10,528 nucleotides of DNA, from positions 1-10,528 of the forward strand of contig NZ_VJXY01000099.1 of NCBI RefSeq assembly GCF_014831675.1, in the 5' to 3' direction. The DNA comes from Komarekiella delphini-convector SJRDD-AB1 (GTDB lineage Bacteria; Cyanobacteriota; Cyanobacteriia; Cyanobacteriales; Nostocaceae). The notes below the pieces were generated by a model. The model saw only the letters and a program-made list of their open reading frames with translations, searched no databases and was not told where the DNA came from. Shown here piece by piece: positions 1,477-10,528 of this stretch (the first letter of the stretch is position 1; every line of letters begins with the position of its first letter). Made by a program: the position numbers and the translations under genes.

Positions 1477-1746
1477 TTGAAGACCCAAGCCGACCACACG
1501 GAGAACATCAAAAATCTAGCGACCAGTTGCAATCAGCTAGGGATAGCCTTGAGCGCATTAAATCTAACGTCGCAGCAACAGCTAGAGCAATTGACTCACT
1601 TAACCAAACTCTCAGCCAATTTGAGCAATGTTTCCCCACAGCAACCAGAGACATTGAGCCAACCGTTGCAAGAACAATTGAACGAGATTCAGGCGAAGAT
1701 TTCTCTATTGAACCAAAAAGACGTGGAATCGGTCGTTAAAGGTTAG
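1477..1746 (+). CDS. Hypothetical Q/L/S-rich helical protein (TTG start); the reading frame is uncertain
   Basis: This 89-codon frame has no ATG. TTG at 1477 is the first possible start and there is no clear SD. An overlapping frame (1527-1739, also TTG-initiated) is equally open. The frame ends at TAG 1744-1746 but continues in frame for a further 68 sense codons (see findings). Confidence 0.3.
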   Translation: MKTQADHTENIKNLATSCNQLGIALSALNLTSQQQLEQLTHLTKLSANLSNVSPQQPETLSQPLQEQLNEIQAKISLLNQKDVESVVKG

Positions 1747-1953: not shown

Positions 1954-2107
1954 AAAAATGATGTTGAAAACGTGATTTAAAACAACTGTGTCTGCATTAC
2001 ACGTAATGGAGATTTGGTGTAATCAAAAAATTATGTGAATTTACGGAATCTCTTAGAGAAACCATGTATATTCAGTAAAATATGCTGCTCAAGAAGGTAG
2101 ATAGTAC

Positions 2108-2530
2108 ATGGAGCCACTAACAGCGGGTGCGATCGCTTTTACAACATGGGTGGTGGGTAAACTGATTGACTGGTCAACAGACAAAACTTTTGATATAGCT
2201 TCGGAACGGCTGATGCAACTGATAAAGCAGAAATCGCCAGACACAGCCAAAACCTTAACGGCAGCAGCAGGACGTGCAGCTTTAGTGCCTGATGAGAGAG
2301 AAGATATTGGGGAAGCTGTCTTGGTGGAAGAAGTGAAAAAGGCCGCAGCTAAAGACCCGGAAATTAAAGCAGCAGTACAAGCATTAGGAAATGATGTAAA
2401 TCAAACTGTAAAGGAGAATACTGAAGTTGAAAAGCGTTTGACAACTGTGATTGAAAATTGGCAAGGCATTAACATCAAAGGCGGAAAGCCAACTATCAGC
2501 AACAATACCTTCAATTTTGGTAACAAATGA
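2108..2530 (+). CDS. Small helical protein with a hydrophobic N-terminal helix and a C-terminal N/Q/G-rich motif; candidate Bell-like membrane-targeting executioner
   Basis: The 140-aa ORF has GAAGG about 11 nt upstream of the ATG. The N-terminus is MEPLTAGAIAFTTWVVGKLIDW, followed by a charged Ala/Lys/Glu-rich helical body. The C-terminal peptide ENWQGINIKGGKPTISNNTFNF recurs in the next gene. The stop overlaps the next start (ATGA at 2527-2530). Confidence 0.85.
   Translation: MEPLTAGAIAFTTWVVGKLIDWSTDKTFDIASERLMQLIKQKSPDTAKTLTAAAGRAALVPDEREDIGEAVLVEEVKKAAAKDPEIKAAVQALGNDVNQTVKENTEVEKRLTTVIENWQGINIKGGKPTISNNTFNFGNK
2453..2518 (+). other. Copy 1 of the shared 22-aa motif (residues 116-137 of the 140-aa protein); candidate amyloid signalling or adaptor motif
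   Basis: ENWQGINIKGGKPTISNNTFNF, ending 3 residues before the stop codon. Confidence 0.7.
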
Positions 2531-5500
2531 CTAATGAAAACTGGCAAGGTATCAATATAAAAGGCGGAAATCCGATTATTAAGGATAATAATATTATCTT
2601 TGAGTCGCCTGAAGAAAATCCCCCAAATAATATTTTATTTCAAGGTTCTGCCAACTTTGTAGGGCGAGAGCTAGAACTGAGGATAGTAAGTGAAAAGTTG
2701 CACAAATCAAGTGTAGTAGCAATATCTGCTATGTCAGGTATGGGAGGAGTGGGCAAAACGGAATTAGCAACACAGTATGCACGAAGATATGAAGCAGATT
2801 ATTCAGGAGGCATTTGTTGGTTAAGTGCAAGAGAATTAAATCTAGCAGCACAAGTTGTGCAGTTTGCTAGTGAGCAAATGAAATTAGAAGTACCGCAGCA
2901 GAATGTGAACGGAGAGGCGCTAAGTCTGAGTGAACAGGTAACTTGGTGTTGGCGAAACTGGCGACCGCAACAAGGGTTAGTGTTGGTAGTTCTAGACGAT
3001 GTTACAGAATTAGAAAGTTGTCGGGAGTTTTTGCCGAGTAGTAACCGTTTTCGTGTACTGATCACAACGCGGCGACGAAATTTAGACTCGAATATTTATG
3101 AGATACCTCTAGATGTGCTGTCAGCACCAGAAGCTTTGCAGTTGTTAACAGCCTTAGTGGGTGAAACAAAAGTCAAGCGTGAATTAGAGACAGCCAAAGA
3201 GTTATGTGAATGGTTGGGATATTTGCCGTTAGGGTTGGAATTGGTAGGGGGGTATATAGCAAAAAAGCCTCCCAATTGGACTATAGCAAAAATGTTGCAG
3301 AGGCTAAAAGAGCAGCAATTAAAAGATGAAGCGCTTAATGTAGAGCAGCAAAAATTACAAAAAACTTTAAGTACAGCACAGCGAGGGGTATTAGCAGCAT
3401 TTGAGTTAAGTTGGCTGGAGCTGGAACATAGAACTCAAAATGTTGCAATATTGTTGAGTTTATTTGCTCCAGGGATTTTTATATGGGAGTGGGTAGAATC
3501 TACAGTTGGTTCACTCAAATGGGTGGCGAGTGATGCTGATACAGCAAATGAGCAATTATATGAACGTAATTTGATTCAATGGGTAGAAGATACGGATGGA
3601 AACTATAAAATCAAAATACATCCTTTAATTCGGGAGTTTTTAAAAGTCAAGCTAGCACTCTCAGAACAAGCTTATGATTTGAAGTCGGCTTTTGTGAAAA
3701 CATTTGTAGAAATTGCCCAAACAATCTCTCCTCCACTTACTCAAGAGAACATTAAATTATTAAAAGATGCAATACCGCATTTGGCGGAGGTAGCACAAAA
3801 TCTAACTGATGTACTTAGTAATGAAAATTTAAGCCAGCCCTTTGTTGGCTTAGGTAGATTTTATCAGGAACAGGGGTTGTATACTTTAGCAGAACCTTGG
3901 TATGAAGGATGCATATCAGCATTAAAAGCCCGTTTTGGGGAAGAACATCCTGAGGTTGCAGCCACTTGTAACAACTTGGCTCTACTCTACAGAAGTCAAG
4001 GAAAATACATGGAAGCAGAACCTCTGTACCTCAAAGCATTATCCTTAGAGCAAGAGCTGCTGGGAGAGGAGCATCTTGAGGTTGCAACCACTTATAACAA
4101 CTTGGCAGTACTCTACAAAAGACAAGGTAGGTACACAGAAGCAGAACCTCTCTATCTCAAAGCATTATCCTTAAGGCAAAAGCTGCTGGGGGAGGAGCAT
4201 CCTGAGGTCGCAAGCAATTGCAATAACTTGGGTATGCTCTACGAAAGCCAAGGTAGGTACACAGAAGCAGAACCGCTCTTGCTCAAAGCATTAGAACTTT
4301 GGCAAAGACTGTCGGGGGAGGAGCATCCTCATGTCGCCTTCGCTTACAGCAACTTGGGTATACTCTACGAAAGACAAGGTAGGTACACAGAAGCAGAACC
4401 GCTCTTGCTCAAAGCATTATCCTTAAGGCAAAGGCTGCTGGGGGATGAGCATCCTGATGTTGCAACCAGTTACAACAACTTGGCAGTACTCTACAAAAGC
4501 CAGGGTAGGTATACAGAAGCAGAATCTCTGTACCTCAAAGCATTAGAACTTGAGCAAAGGCTGCTGGGGGAGGAGCATCCTGATGTCGCAACCGCTTACC
4601 ATAACTTGGCTTTCCTCTACTATAGCCAAGGACGGTACATAGAAACAGAACCTCTGTACCTCAAAGTATTAGAACTAAGGCAAAGGCTGCTGGGCGAGGA
4701 GCATCCTGATGTCGCAACCACTTACAAAAGCTTGGCTGAACTCTACGACAACTGGGCTTTAGTCTACGATAACCAAGGACGGTATGCAGAAGCAGAACTC
4801 CTGTACCTCAAACTATTATCCTTAACGCAAAGGTTGCTGGGGGAGGAACATCGTGATGTCCTAACCAGTTACAACCACTTGGCAGGAATCTATTATAGCC
4901 AAGGACGGTACATAGAAGCAGAACCTCTGTTGCTCAAAGCATTATCTTTAAGGCAAATGCTGCTGGGGGAGGAGCATTCTGATGTTGCAATTAGTTACAA
5001 CAATTTGGCTCAACTCTACTATAGCCAAGGTAAGTACACAGAAGCAGAGCCTATGTACCTCAAAGCATTATCCCTAATGCAAAGGCCGCTGCTAGAGGAG
5101 CATTCTTGGATCGCAATCAGTTACAACAACTTAGCAGTAATCTACGAAAGACAAGGTAGATACACAGAGGCAGAACCGATATACCTTAAAGCATTATCCC
5201 TAATGCAAATGCTGCTGGGGGAGGAGCATCCTGATGTCGCAACCAGTTACAACAACTTGGCAGGAATCTACTATAGCCAAGGTAGGTATACAGAAGCAGA
5301 ACCGGTCTTGCTCAAAGCATTAGAACTAGAGCAAAGGCTGCTGGGAGAGGAGCATCGTGCAGTCGCAACCACTTACCACAACTTGGCTCAACTTTACGAA
5401 AAACAAGGAAGGTATACAGAAGCGGAACCTCTGTGCCTCAAAGCATTATCTCTAATGCAAAGACTGCTAGGGGAGAAGCATTATGAGGTCGCAAACAGTT

Positions 5501-5796
5501 ACAACATCTTGGGTCAACTCTACAATAGCCAAGGAAGGTACATAGAGGCAGAACCGCTATTTCTCAAAGCATTAGAACTAAGGCAAAGGCTGCTGGGGGA
5601 GGAGCATCCTGATGTTGCAACTAGTTACAACAGCTTGGCTCAACTCTACAATAGCCAAGGAAAGTACACACAAGCAGAACCGCTTTTGCTCAAAGCCTTG
5701 AGAATTGTTGAACAAAGATTAGGAGTTGCACATCATAACACAATTACTATTCGTAAAAATCTGGAATGGGTGCGAGATGAAATTTCAAAAAGTTAA
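2527..5796 (+). CDS. STAND NTPase with NB-ARC nucleotide-binding module and C-terminal TPR array (bacterial NLR-like protein)
   Basis: The ORF is 1089 aa. Motifs seen: FVGRELEL pre-P-loop motif, Walker A GMGGVGKTELA (aa 71-81), Walker B LVLVVLDDV (aa 151-159), RVLITTR (aa 176-182), GLPL-like GYLPLGL (aa 221-227) and MHD-like IHPLIRE (aa 364-370). About 15 kinesin-light-chain-type 42-aa TPR units follow from aa 449. Confidence 0.95.
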   Translation: MTNENWQGINIKGGNPIIKDNNIIFESPEENPPNNILFQGSANFVGRELELRIVSEKLHKSSVVAISAMSGMGGVGKTELATQYARRYEADYSGGICWLSARELNLAAQVVQFASEQMKLEVPQQNVNGEALSLSEQVTWCWRNWRPQQGLVLVVLDDVTELESCREFLPSSNRFRVLITTRRRNLDSNIYEIPLDVLSAPEALQLLTALVGETKVKRELETAKELCEWLGYLPLGLELVGGYIAKKPPNWTIAKMLQRLKEQQLKDEALNVEQQKLQKTLSTAQRGVLAAFELSWLELEHRTQNVAILLSLFAPGIFIWEWVESTVGSLKWVASDADTANEQLYERNLIQWVEDTDGNYKIKIHPLIREFLKVKLALSEQAYDLKSAFVKTFVEIAQTISPPLTQENIKLLKDAIPHLAEVAQNLTDVLSNENLSQPFVGLGRFYQEQGLYTLAEPWYEGCISALKARFGEEHPEVAATCNNLALLYRSQGKYMEAEPLYLKALSLEQELLGEEHLEVATTYNNLAVLYKRQGRYTEAEPLYLKALSLRQKLLGEEHPEVASNCNNLGMLYESQGRYTEAEPLLLKALELWQRLSGEEHPHVAFAYSNLGILYERQGRYTEAEPLLLKALSLRQRLLGDEHPDVATSYNNLAVLYKSQGRYTEAESLYLKALELEQRLLGEEHPDVATAYHNLAFLYYSQGRYIETEPLYLKVLELRQRLLGEEHPDVATTYKSLAELYDNWALVYDNQGRYAEAELLYLKLLSLTQRLLGEEHRDVLTSYNHLAGIYYSQGRYIEAEPLLLKALSLRQMLLGEEHSDVAISYNNLAQLYYSQGKYTEAEPMYLKALSLMQRPLLEEHSWIAISYNNLAVIYERQGRYTEAEPIYLKALSLMQMLLGEEHPDVATSYNNLAGIYYSQGRYTEAEPVLLKALELEQRLLGEEHRAVATTYHNLAQLYEKQGRYTEAEPLCLKALSLMQRLLGEKHYEVANSYNILGQLYNSQGRYIEAEPLFLKALELRQRLLGEEHPDVATSYNSLAQLYNSQGKYTQAEPLLLKALRIVEQRLGVAHHNTITIRKNLEWVRDEISKS
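2536..2601 (+). other. Copy 2 of the shared 22-aa motif (residues 4-25 of the NB-ARC/TPR protein)
   Basis: ENWQGINIKGGNPIIKDNNIIF is identical to copy 1 at 15 of 22 positions. The first 11 residues are identical despite 5 synonymous nucleotide differences. Confidence 0.7.
2653..3636 (+). other. NB-ARC nucleotide-binding/oligomerisation module of the NTPase
   Basis: It spans FVGRE through the MHD-like IHPLIRE. The order P-loop, hhhhDD, TTR, GLPL, MHD is canonical for the NB-ARC (AP-ATPase) clade. Confidence 0.85.
3871..5700 (+). repeat. Tandem array of 126-bp (42-codon) TPR-coding units: 14 full units plus a degenerate 15th
   Basis: Consensus unit: QGRYTEAEPLYLKALSL.Q.LLGEEHPDVA..YNNLA.LY... 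Phase is strict at 126 nt (for example 4127, 4253, 4379, 4505), except for unit 7, which is 147 nt. A 45-nt perfect match links 4249-4293 with 4375-4419. Confidence 0.95.
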
Positions 5797-5994: not shown

Positions 5995-6106
5995 TTACAA
6001 TTCTGGCCCCGCCTGCCACAGTAAATCCTCACTCCATTGCTTGAGCAGGGCTTTGATAATATAGCTTCAAGTTCAGCGATCGCTCTAATTAACCGTCGCC
6101 ATCATC
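5995..6106 (-). pseudogene. Remnant of a replication-gene paralogue: two non-contiguous pieces of the 934-aa ORF fused together
   Basis: Minus-strand 6095-6051 reads RLIRAIAELEAILSK, against RLIRAIASLEAILSE in the large ORF (8377-8436). This includes a 21-nt exact match, AGCGATCGCTCTAATTAACCG, at 6075-6095 and 8402-8422. After a frame shift, 6051-5995 reads ALLKQWSEDLLWQAGPEL-stop, against ILKRWTSDLRWQAVLEL (7649-7705). Confidence 0.5.
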
Positions 6107-7550
6107 TCTCACCTCCATGCTGCCAAAACCGCAACTCGGACTTGAAATACCTCTCAGTTTTCTTAGACTCATTGCGCCAGTGATCCCAAGCCACTATCAC
6201 CTCCTCTCCGAAATCCTCTATGACTTCCCCCCTCTCCATATATAAAGTGCGGTAAGGGTCAGCGTGGGCAACAATGGAACCAACTTCAATCAATTCGCAA
6301 TTAGAAGAACCAGATGCGGCAAGACTTTCGTGAGAAACCGTCTGTTCTGCAATTTTGGAGGATTCAGCTTTCTCTAGGGCCGCGATTAGCTCTGTCTGTT
6401 GTGGTGTCAACTCTGCTCTAATGTCCTGCTTGATTACCTCGTACTCTTGCGCCACTGCCCAATAGTCCTGCCAGCTACACCCAGGGTTTAACAACACCCG
6501 TCTAATATCGCTAACCGCCTGTGGCAGCGGTTGCAATTGTTCCGTCCTTATGGCAATCGCCTCTGGTGTAGGACTACTGCCCAAGATTATCGCCGCAGCT
6601 TCCATCGCTTTGGTGTTGTTCATCGCGGTGGCGATCTGCTTCAGTGCCATGCCCATGAGCCGCAGACATTCTTGGGCATTGTCTAGTGGCGGCGAAACTG
6701 CTAGCTCACGCAGATCAATAGTTTCTAAGAGCGCTTGTTTGACCTGCTTGTTTAAAGCTTTGGTTGCCTGCTGGGTCATGGTATTCCCCCACTGCTGGGC
6801 AGGTCGTGATTCTACAGCGTGTTCCAATTCCTGGATACGTTGCTGTAGCTGCTGGTTCTCAATCTCCAACTGCCGGAGCGATTCCATCTCATCCAAACGT
6901 TGCTGCAACTGAATATTTTGCTCTTTCTGTTGCTGGAGTAATTTCTGGTATGCCTCCAGTTGCTCCTTAATTTGTGCTTCGGCTCTGGCAGTAGCCTCTG
7001 CTTGCAAGCCAATCCTCAATTCCTGTTCCAGTCGCTCTAACTCAAGCTTGTGCTGCTCTTTGATTGCTGCGACGTTTTCAATATTTTCAGGAACCAATGG
7101 TTCCTGAACTTTTTTGCGTAGTGGCAAAGGAACCACTTTTTTGGCAGCAGCGGCAAAGTCCGATTCGCTGGGGGAGGGATTTTCCTCAAGTGCAAGAGCT
7201 ACGGCAGCCTTAAGTTTTTCTGGCTCTTTGGCTAACCGAGCTAGTGAACGGGCTTGGCGCTCATTTTTGATGTGTTCGCCAAATTCCCCGGCAGCCTCAA
7301 TAACCTTATGCGCTCCTAGCAGCTGATTGATCCGCCGATACCCACCCCAAGCAGATAGTTCATGCTGGCAGTATTCTTCAAAGTTGTTATATCCAGCATC
7401 CTTAAATACCTGTTGCGATCGCATAAGGAGAATTTCGTCTACCGCCTGGGACTCGAATCGGTCGATGGCGGTGAAGGTTTCTTTGATATTGCTGTTGATC
7501 ACATCGTAGTCGAGTGCTGTTGTTGGTTCTTCTTTATTTAGTGTCAGCAT
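6102..7550 (-). CDS. Hypothetical protein with putative N-terminal HTH/DNA-binding region, central Q/E/L coiled coil and a small C-terminal beta-rich domain; coupled to the replication gene
   Basis: The ORF is 482 aa. Its ATG lies 2 nt after the TAA of the upstream ORF (minus strand reads ...tcg TAA ct ATG...). FKDAGYNNFEEYCQHELSAWGGYRRINQLLGAHKVIE resembles the HTH region common in ParB/KorB-like plasmid and phage proteins. Residues about 165-250 are heptad-like (QLQQRLDEMESLRQLEIENQQLQQRIQELE). Confidence 0.85.
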   Translation of the reverse strand: MLTLNKEEPTTALDYDVINSNIKETFTAIDRFESQAVDEILLMRSQQVFKDAGYNNFEEYCQHELSAWGGYRRINQLLGAHKVIEAAGEFGEHIKNERQARSLARLAKEPEKLKAAVALALEENPSPSESDFAAAAKKVVPLPLRKKVQEPLVPENIENVAAIKEQHKLELERLEQELRIGLQAEATARAEAQIKEQLEAYQKLLQQQKEQNIQLQQRLDEMESLRQLEIENQQLQQRIQELEHAVESRPAQQWGNTMTQQATKALNKQVKQALLETIDLRELAVSPPLDNAQECLRLMGMALKQIATAMNNTKAMEAAAIILGSSPTPEAIAIRTEQLQPLPQAVSDIRRVLLNPGCSWQDYWAVAQEYEVIKQDIRAELTPQQTELIAALEKAESSKIAEQTVSHESLAASGSSNCELIEVGSIVAHADPYRTLYMERGEVIEDFGEEVIVAWDHWRNESKKTERYFKSELRFWQHGGER

Positions 7551-7552
7551 AG

Positions 7553-10528
7553 TTACGAACCCTCCATCGGCAACACCTCTTCTGTTAGCAAGGCATAAAA
7601 CTCCGGTACTACCTGCTCCAAAGAGCGCAGTTCATTCGCCGCTAGAGCCTCCAATTCCAGCACCGCCTGCCAGCGCAAATCAGATGTCCAGCGTTTAAGG
7701 ATGCCTTTAATCGCATCTACCCCTTTAGCAATGCCATCTCTAAGCGTTTGCACACAGTCGAGTAGAGGAGTCGATTCATTGAATTGCGTGGTATCCACCC
7801 CTCCCGATAGGGGGTTCCCTATAGCAATATAGGGGGGGGTGGATACGGGAGAGCTATTCGGCTCAATCCCGTACTCAGTCTGGATTTTAGCTTGATAATA
7901 GAAGGAATTGGCGCTCAATTCCCGTTTGTTTTGGCGATGAGCCATTACTTGTTTTGCAAATTCCAATTCCTCCACAGCAAGCGAATAAATTTTCACCTGC
8001 TCACCGCGTGGCCCCTGCTTGCGGCAAGCTAACTTGAGTCCCAGCTGCTCAAGCATTGTGGCCAGCAACCAAACTGGTTCACAATTACTGGGGATTGTGA
8101 AACCAAGAATTGCTTTAATGTGAGCAGCACAATCAATTGCGATCGCCCTCATATTTAGTAAGTCGCAGTCAGTGGACGTAATTTCGCTTCCGACTACCAA
8201 TTGTTTAAGAATGTGATGCAAACCCAAGTTAAATCTCGCCAACCAATGAGCGGAATAATTACCCCAGTCGAAGCTAAAAGGTAAATTATCCCGTTGGCTG
8301 CGGTCTTTTTGGGTGACAATTGTTGGTGGTGCGGGGTATTGCTGTCCAGTCTTGGGGTCAACAATCGATTCACTTGGTTCAGATAATATGGCCTCAAGAG
8401 AAGCGATCGCTCTAATTAACCGACCGCCGTCATCTAATTCAACCAGTTCGGGCGTAACGGACATCCCGTAGGAATCAAATATGCGAAACTTTTCACATTC
8501 AAAAACTTCCTGGGGTGTCAGGTAATCTTTGCTCTGACGGGCGCGGTATTCACTCAAGGTAATATTGTTAGCCTTGGCAACAGCCGAATAATGGGCAATG
8601 TCCAAAGCCGATGCCGCAACTTTTAGAGATTCTAGAGATTCATGATCATCATCACTGCCCACTGATACTATGGTATTGCCCATCTCCGTAAGCAGCGATC
8701 GCAGATCATCCCGGAGATTATTGAGAGAATAGTGACGGTTAGCTTGAATTTGACAGTAAGCTTCTAGCGCCCAATCTTTCTCTGCTCCCCGTGCTCCTGT
8801 TTTGCGGTCAATTCGCAACAGAAAAGCAGTCATTTCGTTGGTTTGGAGTAATCGCTGTTTGATTTTTGTGGCGTTGGTATCTTTGTAACCAAAGGGAGGG
8901 CGAGGAGCCACCCAAACGTGAAACGGAACTTTGGGGCGATAACGGTAGAGCTGTTGAGCGCATTCGGTTGCCGTTTGGGAAACGCCGTGAAAAACACCAA
9001 ACACCAAATCAAAATGATATTGGGAGATATCTACACCAGTTCCCAAGCTGGGGGAGGTGAGTAAAGCATCGAGGTTTTTGACGGCGTTGGTAATATCTTT
9101 GATGAAAGCAATGTTCTCCTCGCTGCCGGAGTTGTCTGAATGCACAGACCAAATCCGTAATTTTGTGAGTGTAGGAGACGGGGAAGAGTTAGGAGATTCT
9201 TCGCACTTGGAGGAGAGTGATTTTTCAAGTTTCTTGATGAAACGCTTGGAGTCGCTGACCACCATGATTTTCTGTCCTGCCATTAGTGCCGCCGAGATTT
9301 GCGCGACTAGAGCGCTGGAATTATCCCCCTCGTACCAGTGAATAGTGCGTGAGCCATTTCTCCACTCGTTTTTGATGATGTACGGGATTTCCCCTGATGG
9401 ACGCATTGCTCGAAAGAAGTCCACCGTCAGGTCATCCATGTGTGCATCGGCGATGACCACCAATGGCGCATTGTATACTATATATTCCAGTACTTCCAGT
9501 ATTGCGGCGCGATGTGATTTGCAAGTATTACTGTGTAGTAGGTGAGTGAGGTATTGGCAGGCCTCATCAATAAATATGCAGCCGTAGGTGAGAGATTGGG
9601 TATTTAGCTTGTGCAAGCTGTCAATAGTAATGCTCAGAGCTGTGGCTTTGGCTAACCCCACGTAACCAAGTTCTGAATACATGGCAGTCCCCAAGCGTTC
9701 GGCAAGATTTTTCAGGAGATTTACGCGATGACCATTGTTAAGAAATCTTGCTGAAGGATTTTGGTCACGCCACCAGCGCATTAGTTCAGTTTTGCCAGTG
9801 CCCATGTCACTCCATAAAATCACAAGTCCTGCAAACGGAAAGCGGAAAGTAGAGCGACTCTGAGATTTGTATGAATCAACTTCAAGAGAATCTTTTGACT
9901 CCTTGTTGAATTTTTCTTCGATAACAGAAGGAGTAAACAATTTTTCCTTTTCAATCTCATAAAGCTCTGGTACGGATGAACATTCTTCAAGCTCTTTAAT
10001 GCACAAGGCTTGGGAGAGATATTTGACGTTGACTGTCACATCTGGTTTGTACTTACTAAGTCCCCACTTCTTAGCCCGATACGAGCGCTGGTAATCTTTA
10101 AGCGATTTGGCATCATCAATGATCGCGCTCAGTAAGACATTCGCATCTTTATTTCGCGCTACCACAAAATCATCAACGCCTTTCTCTGGCCCCGGCAGTA
10201 ATGCCACTTCGCATTCCCCACCAGCTGCTTCGATTGCTCTACCAGTACGAACCGTTGCCTGAAAAACTGACCAGCGGGTATTTGACCTGGTTTCGTAGTC
10301 AAATAATATAATGAACTTGCGTCCCGCCTGAGCCAATGGTACTAAGTCAGGATGCAACCGTTCATCAAAATCCAGCTTGCCAACTCGCCCGTTCCAAATG
10401 CCGGGGAGTGCTAGAGCTACAAACCCCAGACTTAGTAAGCAAGCGGCCTTCTTCTCACCTTCGCAAAGTATTATTGGTATCTCCGAGTGTGCGATGACCC
10501 ACTCCCAGAAGATCAGCGGATTGAGTCG
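7553..10528 (-). CDS. Large plasmid-type replication protein (N-terminal Toprim/DUF3854-like domain plus P-loop helicase-like NTPase), 5' partial; possibly CyRepA1-like
   Basis: The codon labelled M at 10357 in the ORF track is an internal TTG. The frame stays open for all 57 codons out to position 10528: RLNPLIFWEWVIAHSEIPIILCEGEKKAACLLSLGFVALALPGIWNG. This is a Toprim-type E-G-x-x-K-A signature, followed by FIILFDYE and KGVDDF acidic motifs. Walker A is WSDMGTGKTE (GTGKT at 9788-9802), Walker B is IFIDEA (DE at 9563-9568), and there is a helicase-like TSPSLGTGVDI. Confidence 0.85.
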   Translation of the reverse strand, partial: RLNPLIFWEWVIAHSEIPIILCEGEKKAACLLSLGFVALALPGIWNGRVGKLDFDERLHPDLVPLAQAGRKFIILFDYETRSNTRWSVFQATVRTGRAIEAAGGECEVALLPGPEKGVDDFVVARNKDANVLLSAIIDDAKSLKDYQRSYRAKKWGLSKYKPDVTVNVKYLSQALCIKELEECSSVPELYEIEKEKLFTPSVIEEKFNKESKDSLEVDSYKSQSRSTFRFPFAGLVILWSDMGTGKTELMRWWRDQNPSARFLNNGHRVNLLKNLAERLGTAMYSELGYVGLAKATALSITIDSLHKLNTQSLTYGCIFIDEACQYLTHLLHSNTCKSHRAAILEVLEYIVYNAPLVVIADAHMDDLTVDFFRAMRPSGEIPYIIKNEWRNGSRTIHWYEGDNSSALVAQISAALMAGQKIMVVSDSKRFIKKLEKSLSSKCEESPNSSPSPTLTKLRIWSVHSDNSGSEENIAFIKDITNAVKNLDALLTSPSLGTGVDISQYHFDLVFGVFHGVSQTATECAQQLYRYRPKVPFHVWVAPRPPFGYKDTNATKIKQRLLQTNEMTAFLLRIDRKTGARGAEKDWALEAYCQIQANRHYSLNNLRDDLRSLLTEMGNTIVSVGSDDDHESLESLKVAASALDIAHYSAVAKANNITLSEYRARQSKDYLTPQEVFECEKFRIFDSYGMSVTPELVELDDGGRLIRAIASLEAILSEPSESIVDPKTGQQYPAPPTIVTQKDRSQRDNLPFSFDWGNYSAHWLARFNLGLHHILKQLVVGSEITSTDCDLLNMRAIAIDCAAHIKAILGFTIPSNCEPVWLLATMLEQLGLKLACRKQGPRGEQVKIYSLAVEELEFAKQVMAHRQNKRELSANSFYYQAKIQTEYGIEPNSSPVSTPPYIAIGNPLSGGVDTTQFNESTPLLDCVQTLRDGIAKGVDAIKGILKRWTSDLRWQAVLELEALAANELRSLEQVVPEFYALLTEEVLPMEGS
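7791..7846. repeat. Nested palindrome with a G8/C8 homopolymer inside the replication gene
   Basis: Outer 11-bp perfect arms are GTATCCACCCC (7791-7801) and GGGGTGGATAC (7836-7846). Inside, CCCTATA (7817-7823) can pair with TATAGGG (7828-7834) across a GCAA loop. Alternatively CCCTAT pairs with ATAGGG (7807-7812) across GGTT. The G8 run lies at 7832-7839. Confidence 0.6.

Follow-up and report, generated by a model that had tools for sequence, protein, structure and literature searches.

Gene organization of the locus

The DNA analyzed here (the window) is a 10,528-nt stretch of Komarekiella delphini-convector SJRDD-AB1 (Nostocaceae; contig NZ_VJXY01000099.1), and the element in question is a pair of overlapping genes at positions 2108 to 5796. 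[quoted passage not shown] The two proteins carry similar versions of one short peptide, assigned to the motif family BASS7. The module contains the following features.

2054–2081, plus strand: possible but weak promoter, TAGAGA-16-TAAAAT, 26 nt 5' of the Bell start (9/12 in a consensus scan)
2108–2530, plus strand: predicted Bell-domain effector gene with C-terminal BASS7 motif (140-aa open reading frame, ORF)
2108–2158, plus strand: N-terminal MEP and hydrophobic helix, putatively membrane-inserting (residues 1–17)
2108–2461, plus strand: predicted helical Bell domain (residues 1–118; AlphaFold2 model)
2453–2518, plus strand: Bell-side BASS7 motif, ENWQGINIKGGKPTISNNTFNF (small-protein residues 116–137)
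2527–2530, plus strand: ATGA stop/start overlap and translational coupling site (ATG at 2527, TGA at 2528–2530)
2527–5796, plus strand: NB-ARC/TPR gene, NLR-type STAND NTPase (1089-aa ORF)
2536–2601, plus strand: NLR-side BASS7 motif, ENWQGINIKGGNPIIKDNNIIF (NLR residues 4–25)
2656–3372, plus strand: NB-ARC nucleotide-binding module (residues 44–282; Pfam PF00931 at 51–282, E 4.7e-18)
2737–2760, plus strand: Walker A P-loop GMGGVGKT (residue 71)
3910–5793, plus strand: predicted TPR sensor arm, 14 units of 42 aa and a C-terminal cap (Tandem Repeats Finder, TRF)
4734–4773, plus strand: 21-nt (7-aa) duplication in TPR unit 7 (repeat analysis)

Both ORFs and their ATGA overlap had been described in a preceding interpretation made from the DNA letters and their translations (the sequence-only reading), and all three are present. 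Through termination-reinitiation, the overlap probably holds the amount of sensor below that of the effector. Promoter-like sites around 2054–2081 were no more numerous than in shuffled sequences.

The shared peptide and its assignment to BASS7

Aligned without gaps, ENWQGINIKGGKPTISNNTFNF and ENWQGINIKGGNPIIKDNNIIF are identical at 15 of 22 positions (68%), 11 of them consecutive. The local BLOSUM62 score of 84 compares with 24.6 ± 5.1, and a maximum of 52, over 5000 shuffles of the NLR N-terminus, a match far above chance. The sequence-only reading had called the NLR peptide a duplicate of the small protein's 22-residue tail; the sharing of the peptide holds, whereas at this level of identity it is no copy. 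The corresponding DNA is identical at 47 of 66 nt and uses different codons at seven of the 15 identical residues, which argues for a match kept at the protein level and against a recent duplication. Asparagine, glutamine and glycine make up 41% of the Bell-side motif and 16% of the whole small protein. In length, N/Q/G bias and alternation of hydrophobic residues, the BASS7 motif resembles validated BASS and fungal motifs.

For family assignment, the motif strings were compared with the bass_07 entries in Table S2 of Dyrka et al. 2020 (bioRxiv 10.1101/2020.01.06.895854), and by this comparison the shared peptide is BASS7, among the ten bacterial amyloid signaling motif families of that study. 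Two relatives of the window protein connect it to catalogued entries. The Calothrix sp. 336/3 protein P0050, which matches the window Bell protein at E 6.4e-24, ends in exactly the motif listed for AKG20974.1 at residues 112–138, PTIINENWQGINIKGGTNTINNNTFNF; at locus L003, the Bell protein is 85% identical to that of the window, and the motif strings equal those of OYE01691.1/OYE01692.1 from a Nostoc lichen cyanobiont in Table S2. P0050 and L003 were tied to these accessions through organism, position and motif string, not through the accession itself. On these matches, the window pair is an ortholog of a catalogued pair whose architecture has already been described, and the sequence-only reading, which had pointed to the Bell/BASS/NLR layout of the same study, was correct in this respect.

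The Bell-domain protein

By homology, the small protein is a Bell-domain protein. Its 95 homologs are all cyanobacterial, measure 105–166 aa and are without exception labelled hypothetical; the one 100% match is FNW02_35960 of Komarekiella sp. 'clone 1'. A Bell profile searched against 1.84 billion cluster representatives retrieved 366 clusters (50% identity) at E ≤ 0.001, almost all of them 60–170 aa long. The N-terminus of the family is nearly invariant, reading MEP-(L/I/V)-T-x-G-A-I-A followed by hydrophobic residues, and most members end in ENWQGINIKGG..TI.NNTFNF. The window protein begins MEPLTAGAIAF; among 93 homologs, M1, E2, P3, T5 and A10 of this stretch either do not vary or reach at least 90% conservation. 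No 15-residue segment of the protein is more hydrophobic than its N-terminal helix.

Apart from an N-terminal 'MEPIS' helix, Bell-type domains have little in common, and their topology varies (Ibarlosa et al. 2024). As judged from the residues it shares with that signature, the MEPLT stretch with its hydrophobic helix corresponds to the signature known as 'MEPIS' in Bell/Hell domains, in agreement with the N-terminal helix of Bell type proposed by the sequence-only reading. That reading had also suggested comparison with the HeLo/HELL models of Pfam, which produced no match: at E ≤ 0.1, the small protein gave no HeLo or HeLo-like hit and just two sub-threshold helical ones. Nor was there a usable match in Pfam, NCBIfam, PADLOC or PHROGs, so that assignment to a well-characterized non-effector family, which would have spoken against an effector, was not found in these collections. 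Searched with the Bell alignment profile, the sequences of the PDB returned noise only (E ≥ 0.06) and no solved relative.

Structure prediction of the N-terminal part, also proposed beforehand, gave an all-helical domain. An AlphaFold2 model from 29 sequences (predicted local distance difference test, pLDDT, 66.6) placed helices up to residue 119, followed by a tail whose pLDDT is lower than 50. The model of residues 1–118 from 93 sequences (pLDDT 78.6, predicted template modeling score 0.71) contains six helices and is entirely alpha, with the first helix at residues 3–16. In these models, the small protein is predicted to be all-helical with a disordered N/Q/G-rich tail.

As far as the alignments go, the Bell domain stays conserved while its tail motifs are exchanged. 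The close homologs P0020, P0025, P0076 and P0087 (45–57% identity to the window protein) carry other C-terminal motifs, for example NSIEKVVNLAQGIKSSINIQNQTINL and AETIGINKQNISGGEVYQTFGQGNINI (alignment A1, columns 140–176). P0020 and the BASS7 protein P0006 lie on 34,655-bp contigs of strain CENA369, probably one and the same contig (tags I8752_35925 and I8752_35960, respectively).

The NLR and its repeat arm

In the larger protein, FVGRELE stands at residue 44, the Walker B sequence LVVLDD at 153 and a GLPL-like motif at 231, with an IHPL (MHD-like) motif at 364, beyond the NB-ARC span; as read from these motifs, the NTPase is intact. From about residue 462 to the end, 14–15 TPR_12/TPR_10 units follow (TPR_12 E 1.2e-212). 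The domain scan detected NB-ARC and TPR only, leaving the BASS7 motif as the sole N-terminal appendage; the description of some 40 residues ahead of NB-ARC with no effector domain was therefore accurate.

TRF resolved the array as 13.9 copies of a 126-nt period at 3937–5704. The units average 67% pairwise identity and are hypervariable at positions 5, 7, 14, 15, 18, 19, 25, 28 and 40. The NLRs of the closest orthologs are 250–350 aa shorter (about 740–845 aa), which suggests that the number of TPRs varies and is unstable. Internally conserved, fast-reshuffling repeats have been discussed for fungal and bacterial NLRs, and the window array fits this description.

Conservation of the gene pair

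Pair conservation was scanned in one genome per species with the peptide ENWQGINI, which returned 55 loci. In 24 of these, counting the window, a same-strand NB-ARC gene comes after the Bell gene, starts ATG-[Thr/Ser]-x and carries a BASS7 motif of its own. The ATGA overlap recurs in 10 of the 24, the other loci having gaps of 5–359 nt. Within pairs, the variable half of the motif shares 5.6 of 11 residues, compared with 4.1 of 11 between pairs (p < 1e-4 in a permutation that ignores shared ancestry), and the 'NP' and 'NN/DN' variants of the motif co-occur on both partners of a pair. Such co-variation is expected of co-evolving, interacting motifs. Adjacency and shared peptide, whose absence from homologous pairs would have counted against the sequence-only reading, are thus conserved across the 24 loci. 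Taken together with the domain and motif assignments, these comparisons support its interpretation, every sequence-level element that was checked having been found.

Five BASS7 Bell genes were observed without an intact partner nearby (L001, L016, L018, L048 and L050). At L001:5997-6573 the 3' end of the Bell gene is disrupted and no NB-ARC gene lies within 6 kb; at L016 and L018 the NB-ARC ORFs are fragmented or N-terminally truncated; L048 (Crocosphaera) and L050 are orphan genes. Such loci may represent modules in decay, or the partner may be located elsewhere. At L054:6515-8900, the protein encoded after a BASS7 Bell gene measures 795 aa, begins with the BASS7-like peptide QQGINAGGGINYIHGNQFFF and does not match the NB-ARC query; it may represent a different class of sensor.

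Plasmid setting and mobility

On either side of the module, the window carries two genes of a plasmid backbone.

317–1246, plus strand: tyrosine recombinase (Xer-like), plasmid backbone (family matches)
7553–>10528, minus strand: CyRepA1 plasmid replication gene, N-terminus cut by the contig end (NCBIfam CyRepA1, 346.9 bits; cut-off 200)

The CyRepA1 match confirms, at the level of sequence, the plasmid context that the sequence-only reading had proposed from a replication gene next to the module. The CyRepA1 frame stays open to the window end, and the TTG start that the ORF finder listed at 10357 is artefactual; by comparison with a 1151-aa homolog on plasmid p057_G (Nostoc sp. C057), the encoded protein lacks about 165 residues at its N-terminus. 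Comparison of the contig ends for circularity revealed no terminal overlap.

In a megablast search against plasmids, 40 Nostocales plasmids matched, over the recombinase and repA only. These two genes lie 129 bp apart in p057_G and 6.3 kb apart in the window, the additional stretch consisting of the Bell/NLR pair and a 482-aa ORF. DNA homology to loci L001–L004 begins about 10–50 nt 5' of the Bell start (at about 2057 for L001 and L004; at 1471 for L002) and is limited to the module, or in L001 to the Bell gene; within 6 kb, these four loci have neither a recombinase nor repA. Homology confined to the module, in otherwise different settings, marks the two genes as a mobile cargo unit, and the window shows that BASS7 modules travel as two-gene cargo on CyRepA1 plasmids.

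Two further ORFs adjoin the module. The 482-aa protein (6102–7550, minus strand) is Q/E-rich and probably coiled-coil, and its start directly abuts the CyRepA1 stop with 0 intergenic nt; it has no match in Pfam, NCBIfam, PADLOC or PHROGs and is absent from p057_G. On the 5' side, an 89-aa ORF (1477–1746, plus strand) is matched, at 63% identity over 76 aligned residues, by a translation from the corresponding place in L002, and is not conserved in L003 or L004.

Proposed mechanism and alternative explanations

We interpret the locus as a Bell/BASS7/NB-ARC-TPR amyloid signaling module that is cargo of a CyRepA1-type Nostocales plasmid and acts, by analogy, through cell death; we put the probability of this interpretation at roughly 75%. 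The mechanism is modelled on the fungal HET-S/NWD2 paradigm, on experiments with BASS1 and BASS3, and on Bab/Agp of E. coli. A ligand, most likely a protein derived from an invader, would bind the TPR arm, upon which the NB-ARC domain would oligomerize. The N-terminal BASS7 segments gathered in this way would nucleate a cross-beta fold, and this fold would template the same-type motif on the more abundant Bell protein. Conversion of the Bell tail would free helix 1 from its helical sheath, and helix 1 would then attack the membrane and cause cell death, as abortive infection or as another form of regulated cell death.

The closest experimental precedents come from other motif families. BASS1 and BASS3 form prions and fibrils, and their NLR-side motifs convert the Bell-side motifs (Dyrka et al. 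2020). E. coli Bab is a Bell-type executor of abortive infection after amyloid signaling, and the helix-1 mutation G11K abolishes its killing (bioRxiv 10.1101/2024.11.07.622273). By extension from these BASS families and Bab/Agp, BASS7 may support amyloid templating, pore formation and abortive infection. The BASS7 module itself is compact, at 3.7 kb, is carried on a plasmid and is apparently self-contained; it belongs to a family whose function in cyanobacteria we infer by analogy.

Several points weigh against this interpretation. The motif tests in the preprint of Dyrka et al. covered BASS1 and BASS3, with BASS7 outside them, and the hydrophobicity of helix 1 in the window protein is only moderate (mean Kyte-Doolittle 1.3–1.5). 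A Foldseek search of both Bell models against the PDB found no match at E ≤ 0.001 to HeLo, MLKL, CC or another fold, the top matches being RbcX and Bcl-xL with template modeling (TM) scores of 0.3 or less, a result that fits the varied topology seen by Ibarlosa et al. 2024. Part of the within-pair co-variation may reflect the shared ancestry that the permutation leaves aside. Applied to both proteins, PADLOC matched a generic TPR model to the NLR only and no defence-component model, and no phage-related gene or defence island is visible in the 10.5-kb contig.

The same machine might serve a purpose other than phage defence, namely plasmid maintenance or exclusion through the death of cells that have lost or mishandle the plasmid, the recognition of kin, or cell death as part of development in a filamentous, multicellular cyanobacterium. 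This would suit the insertion of the module between recombinase and repA, where related plasmids have nothing, and the lack of a phage gene nearby, as well as the confinement of Bell/NLR pairs to multicellular prokaryotes (Dyrka et al. 2020) and the role of fungal HET-S in allorecognition. We nevertheless regard it as unlikely: abortive infection is the function of the sole Bell-type system that has been tested, orthologous modules also occur in non-replication contexts, so that there is no obligate link to plasmids, and the hypervariable TPR arm fits the recognition of diverse non-self ligands.

Less probable still is that the shared peptide acts as a heterotypic docking tag, for instance by beta-strand addition, with the small protein serving as an adaptor or regulator of the NTPase and neither amyloid nor membrane action involved. 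Amyloid formation has been demonstrated for motifs other than BASS7, and the Bell model lacks a match to a pore-former fold, both of which leave room for such docking. Self-templating accounts better, however, for one Bell domain that occurs with several unrelated N/Q/G-rich tails, each paired to its own NLR; the likeness of the motif to validated ones in length, composition and alternating hydrophobics points in the same direction, as does the MEP N-terminus shared with Bab, whose helix 1 is needed for killing.

That the large protein is instead the TPR component of an FxSxx-COOH peptide-modification system, with a small protein unrelated to cell death, is hardly credible, since its match to NCBIfam NF040586 (FxSxx_TPR; 415.9 bits, cut-off 300, residues 41–737) falls on the generic NB-ARC and TPR_12 body and is silent on the shared N-terminal motif, and no radical-SAM/SPASM maturase or FxSxx-COOH precursor ORF was found in the window. 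FxSxx-COOH systems are defined by linkage to precisely these two partner genes. The corresponding name for the NLR was rejected, the other sizeable ORFs of the window being the recombinase, CyRepA1 and the 482-aa protein; rule-based annotation likely misnames BASS-type NLRs.

Relatives with a single in-frame stop

Outside the window, a second arrangement was found in 41 related Nostocales loci (23 from species genomes, 18 from metagenome contigs), where the ORF carrying the Bell domain and motif and the NB-ARC/TPR ORF are in frame and separated by one stop codon. The genome loci (L023, L024, L026–L029, L031–L037, L039–L047 and L049) belong to Nostoc spp., N. calcicola, N. minutum and Dendronalium, with N. 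punctiforme NIES-2108 represented twice. The metagenome loci (L059–L061, L065–L067, L070, L071, L076, L078 and L080–L087) come from a scan anchored on the NLR start PQN.P..SGV..FVGR, which returned 29 loci, 18 of them with the same stop junction. In most of the genome loci, the junction lies at about 6376–6378.

In the 23 genome loci, which are part of the 55 described above, the Bell-BASS7 ORF ends in TGA, with CTA as the following codon in every case. Termination is weak where C comes directly after UGA. Beyond the stop, the frame runs through a linker of 22–26 aa into FVGREEEL and NB-ARC, in an NLR that lacks its own BASS7 motif. No ATG precedes the P-loop in 21 of the 23, and gene callers start these NLRs at an in-frame TTG about 17 codons 3' of the stop. 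Over the 54 nt after TGA, the genome loci contain 0 in-frame stops, compared with 40 and 20 in the other frames, and variants of linker length differ by whole codons.

The metagenome loci widen the range of motifs. Their upstream ORFs match the Bell profile in 17 of 18 cases (E 1e-9 to 1e-39; only the 48-aa ORF of L081 does not), and at least six unrelated N/Q/G-rich, amyloid-type tails occur upstream of the in-frame stop. The junction takes the form TGA-CTA, TGA-CTG or TAG-CTA. TAA is found at none of the 41 junctions, whereas 12 of 14 free-standing Bell genes end in it. Between motif families the sequence before the stop is unrelated, and conservation starts exactly at the stop.

Eight nucleotides after the stop begins a possible stem-loop with a 5-bp stem and an 8-nt loop (alignment A6, columns 18–22 with 31–35; for example L059:1004-1021). 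All 120 of 120 cells are paired across the 25 long-linker junctions in A6, with CG<->UA compensatory changes at two pairs; none of 500 shuffles paired as well, and slid controls reached at most 40%. The thermodynamic stability of the stem-loop was no better than that of shuffles. Translation of the linker gained no support from third-codon-position bias, the variable sites being distributed 10/10/9 over the three positions, and among the best 150 of the 366 profile matches there was no Bell-BASS7-NLR fusion in which a sense codon replaces the stop, the long matches having unrelated architectures. The post-motif linker of the window NLR shows a suggestive likeness to the long post-stop linkers (p 0.003–0.09) and none to the short variant.

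These observations leave the balance even for programmed stop-codon readthrough in the relatives, by which one ORF would yield two products: the effector, as the major Bell-motif protein, and in smaller amount the sensor, as a Bell-motif-NLR fusion. The alternative is that the NLR starts at a downstream TTG or GTG and is made without any motif, which would leave three points unexplained: why the frame is conserved over six motif families, why TAA is avoided and why the Leu codon does not vary. If readthrough does occur, it would fix both the stoichiometry and the motif identity of sensor and effector, offering a new mechanistic answer to the sharing of an amyloid motif at a controlled ratio and a rare example of recoding on a bacterial chromosome. 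A literature search found no paper linking readthrough to Bell/BASS/NLR systems. The ATGA-coupled pair with its duplicated motif may be only one of two genetic solutions in this family.

At the TGA-CTA junction of L083:1-2573, the upstream ORF encodes 384 aa, with an alpha/beta-hydrolase-like N-terminal part ('HSMGG') ahead of a C-terminal half-Bell and BASS7. By its sequence, this ORF resembles a case of effectors swapped at one and the same junction.

Comparison with known systems

Like Avs/Avast2 and bNACHT proteins, some of which carry the 'MEPIS' N-terminal helix, the window NLR couples a STAND NTPase to a repeat sensor arm. Their effector is fused to the sensor, whereas that of the window is a separate protein joined to it only via the shared motif, and the window proteins matched none of the PADLOC Avs/bNACHT models.

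The parallel with HET-S/NWD2 of Podospora anserina extends to adjacent genes, to an NLR with a single N-terminal motif and no effector domain, to an effector that combines a helical membrane-targeting domain (predicted here) with a C-terminal motif, and to the same proposed templating logic. In contrast to HET-S, the window Bell protein has no detectable sequence or fold similarity to HeLo and bears one motif copy instead of two pseudo-repeats; the sensor is NB-ARC/TPR rather than the NACHT/WD of NWD2, and the window genes are bacterial, overlapping and co-transcribed. By this analogy, the small protein is one that would work like the fungal HeLo/Hell effectors (HET-S, HELLP) and is not a member of their family.

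Bab/Agp of E. coli ECOR25 (bioRxiv 10.1101/2024.11.07.622273) is the relative with a demonstrated function and shares the MEP N-terminus. Its motif is BASS11 and its sensor TPR-GreA/B-C-PIN, whereas the window has BASS7 and an NB-ARC/TPR protein devoid of GreA/B or PIN; its Babybell domain, at about 80 aa, is shorter than the window Bell domain, and it is located in a prophage defence hotspot.

The closest likeness is to the Nostocales Bell/BASS7/NB-ARC-TPR pairs published by Dyrka et al. 2020, with which the window pair has in common the motif family, the Bell family (85% identity), the NLR type, the gene order and the overlap, as well as the positions of the motif, at Bell residues 116–137 and from NLR residue 4 onward. 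The 4-bp overlap lies within the published gene spacing (collinear, usually ≤10 bp apart or overlapping). The window copy is set apart by its occurrence in Komarekiella next to a CyRepA1 gene and, relative to its closest orthologs, by a longer NLR (1089 versus about 740–845 aa) and a more diverged NLR-side motif, which retains 15 of 22 residues compared with 17–19 of 22.

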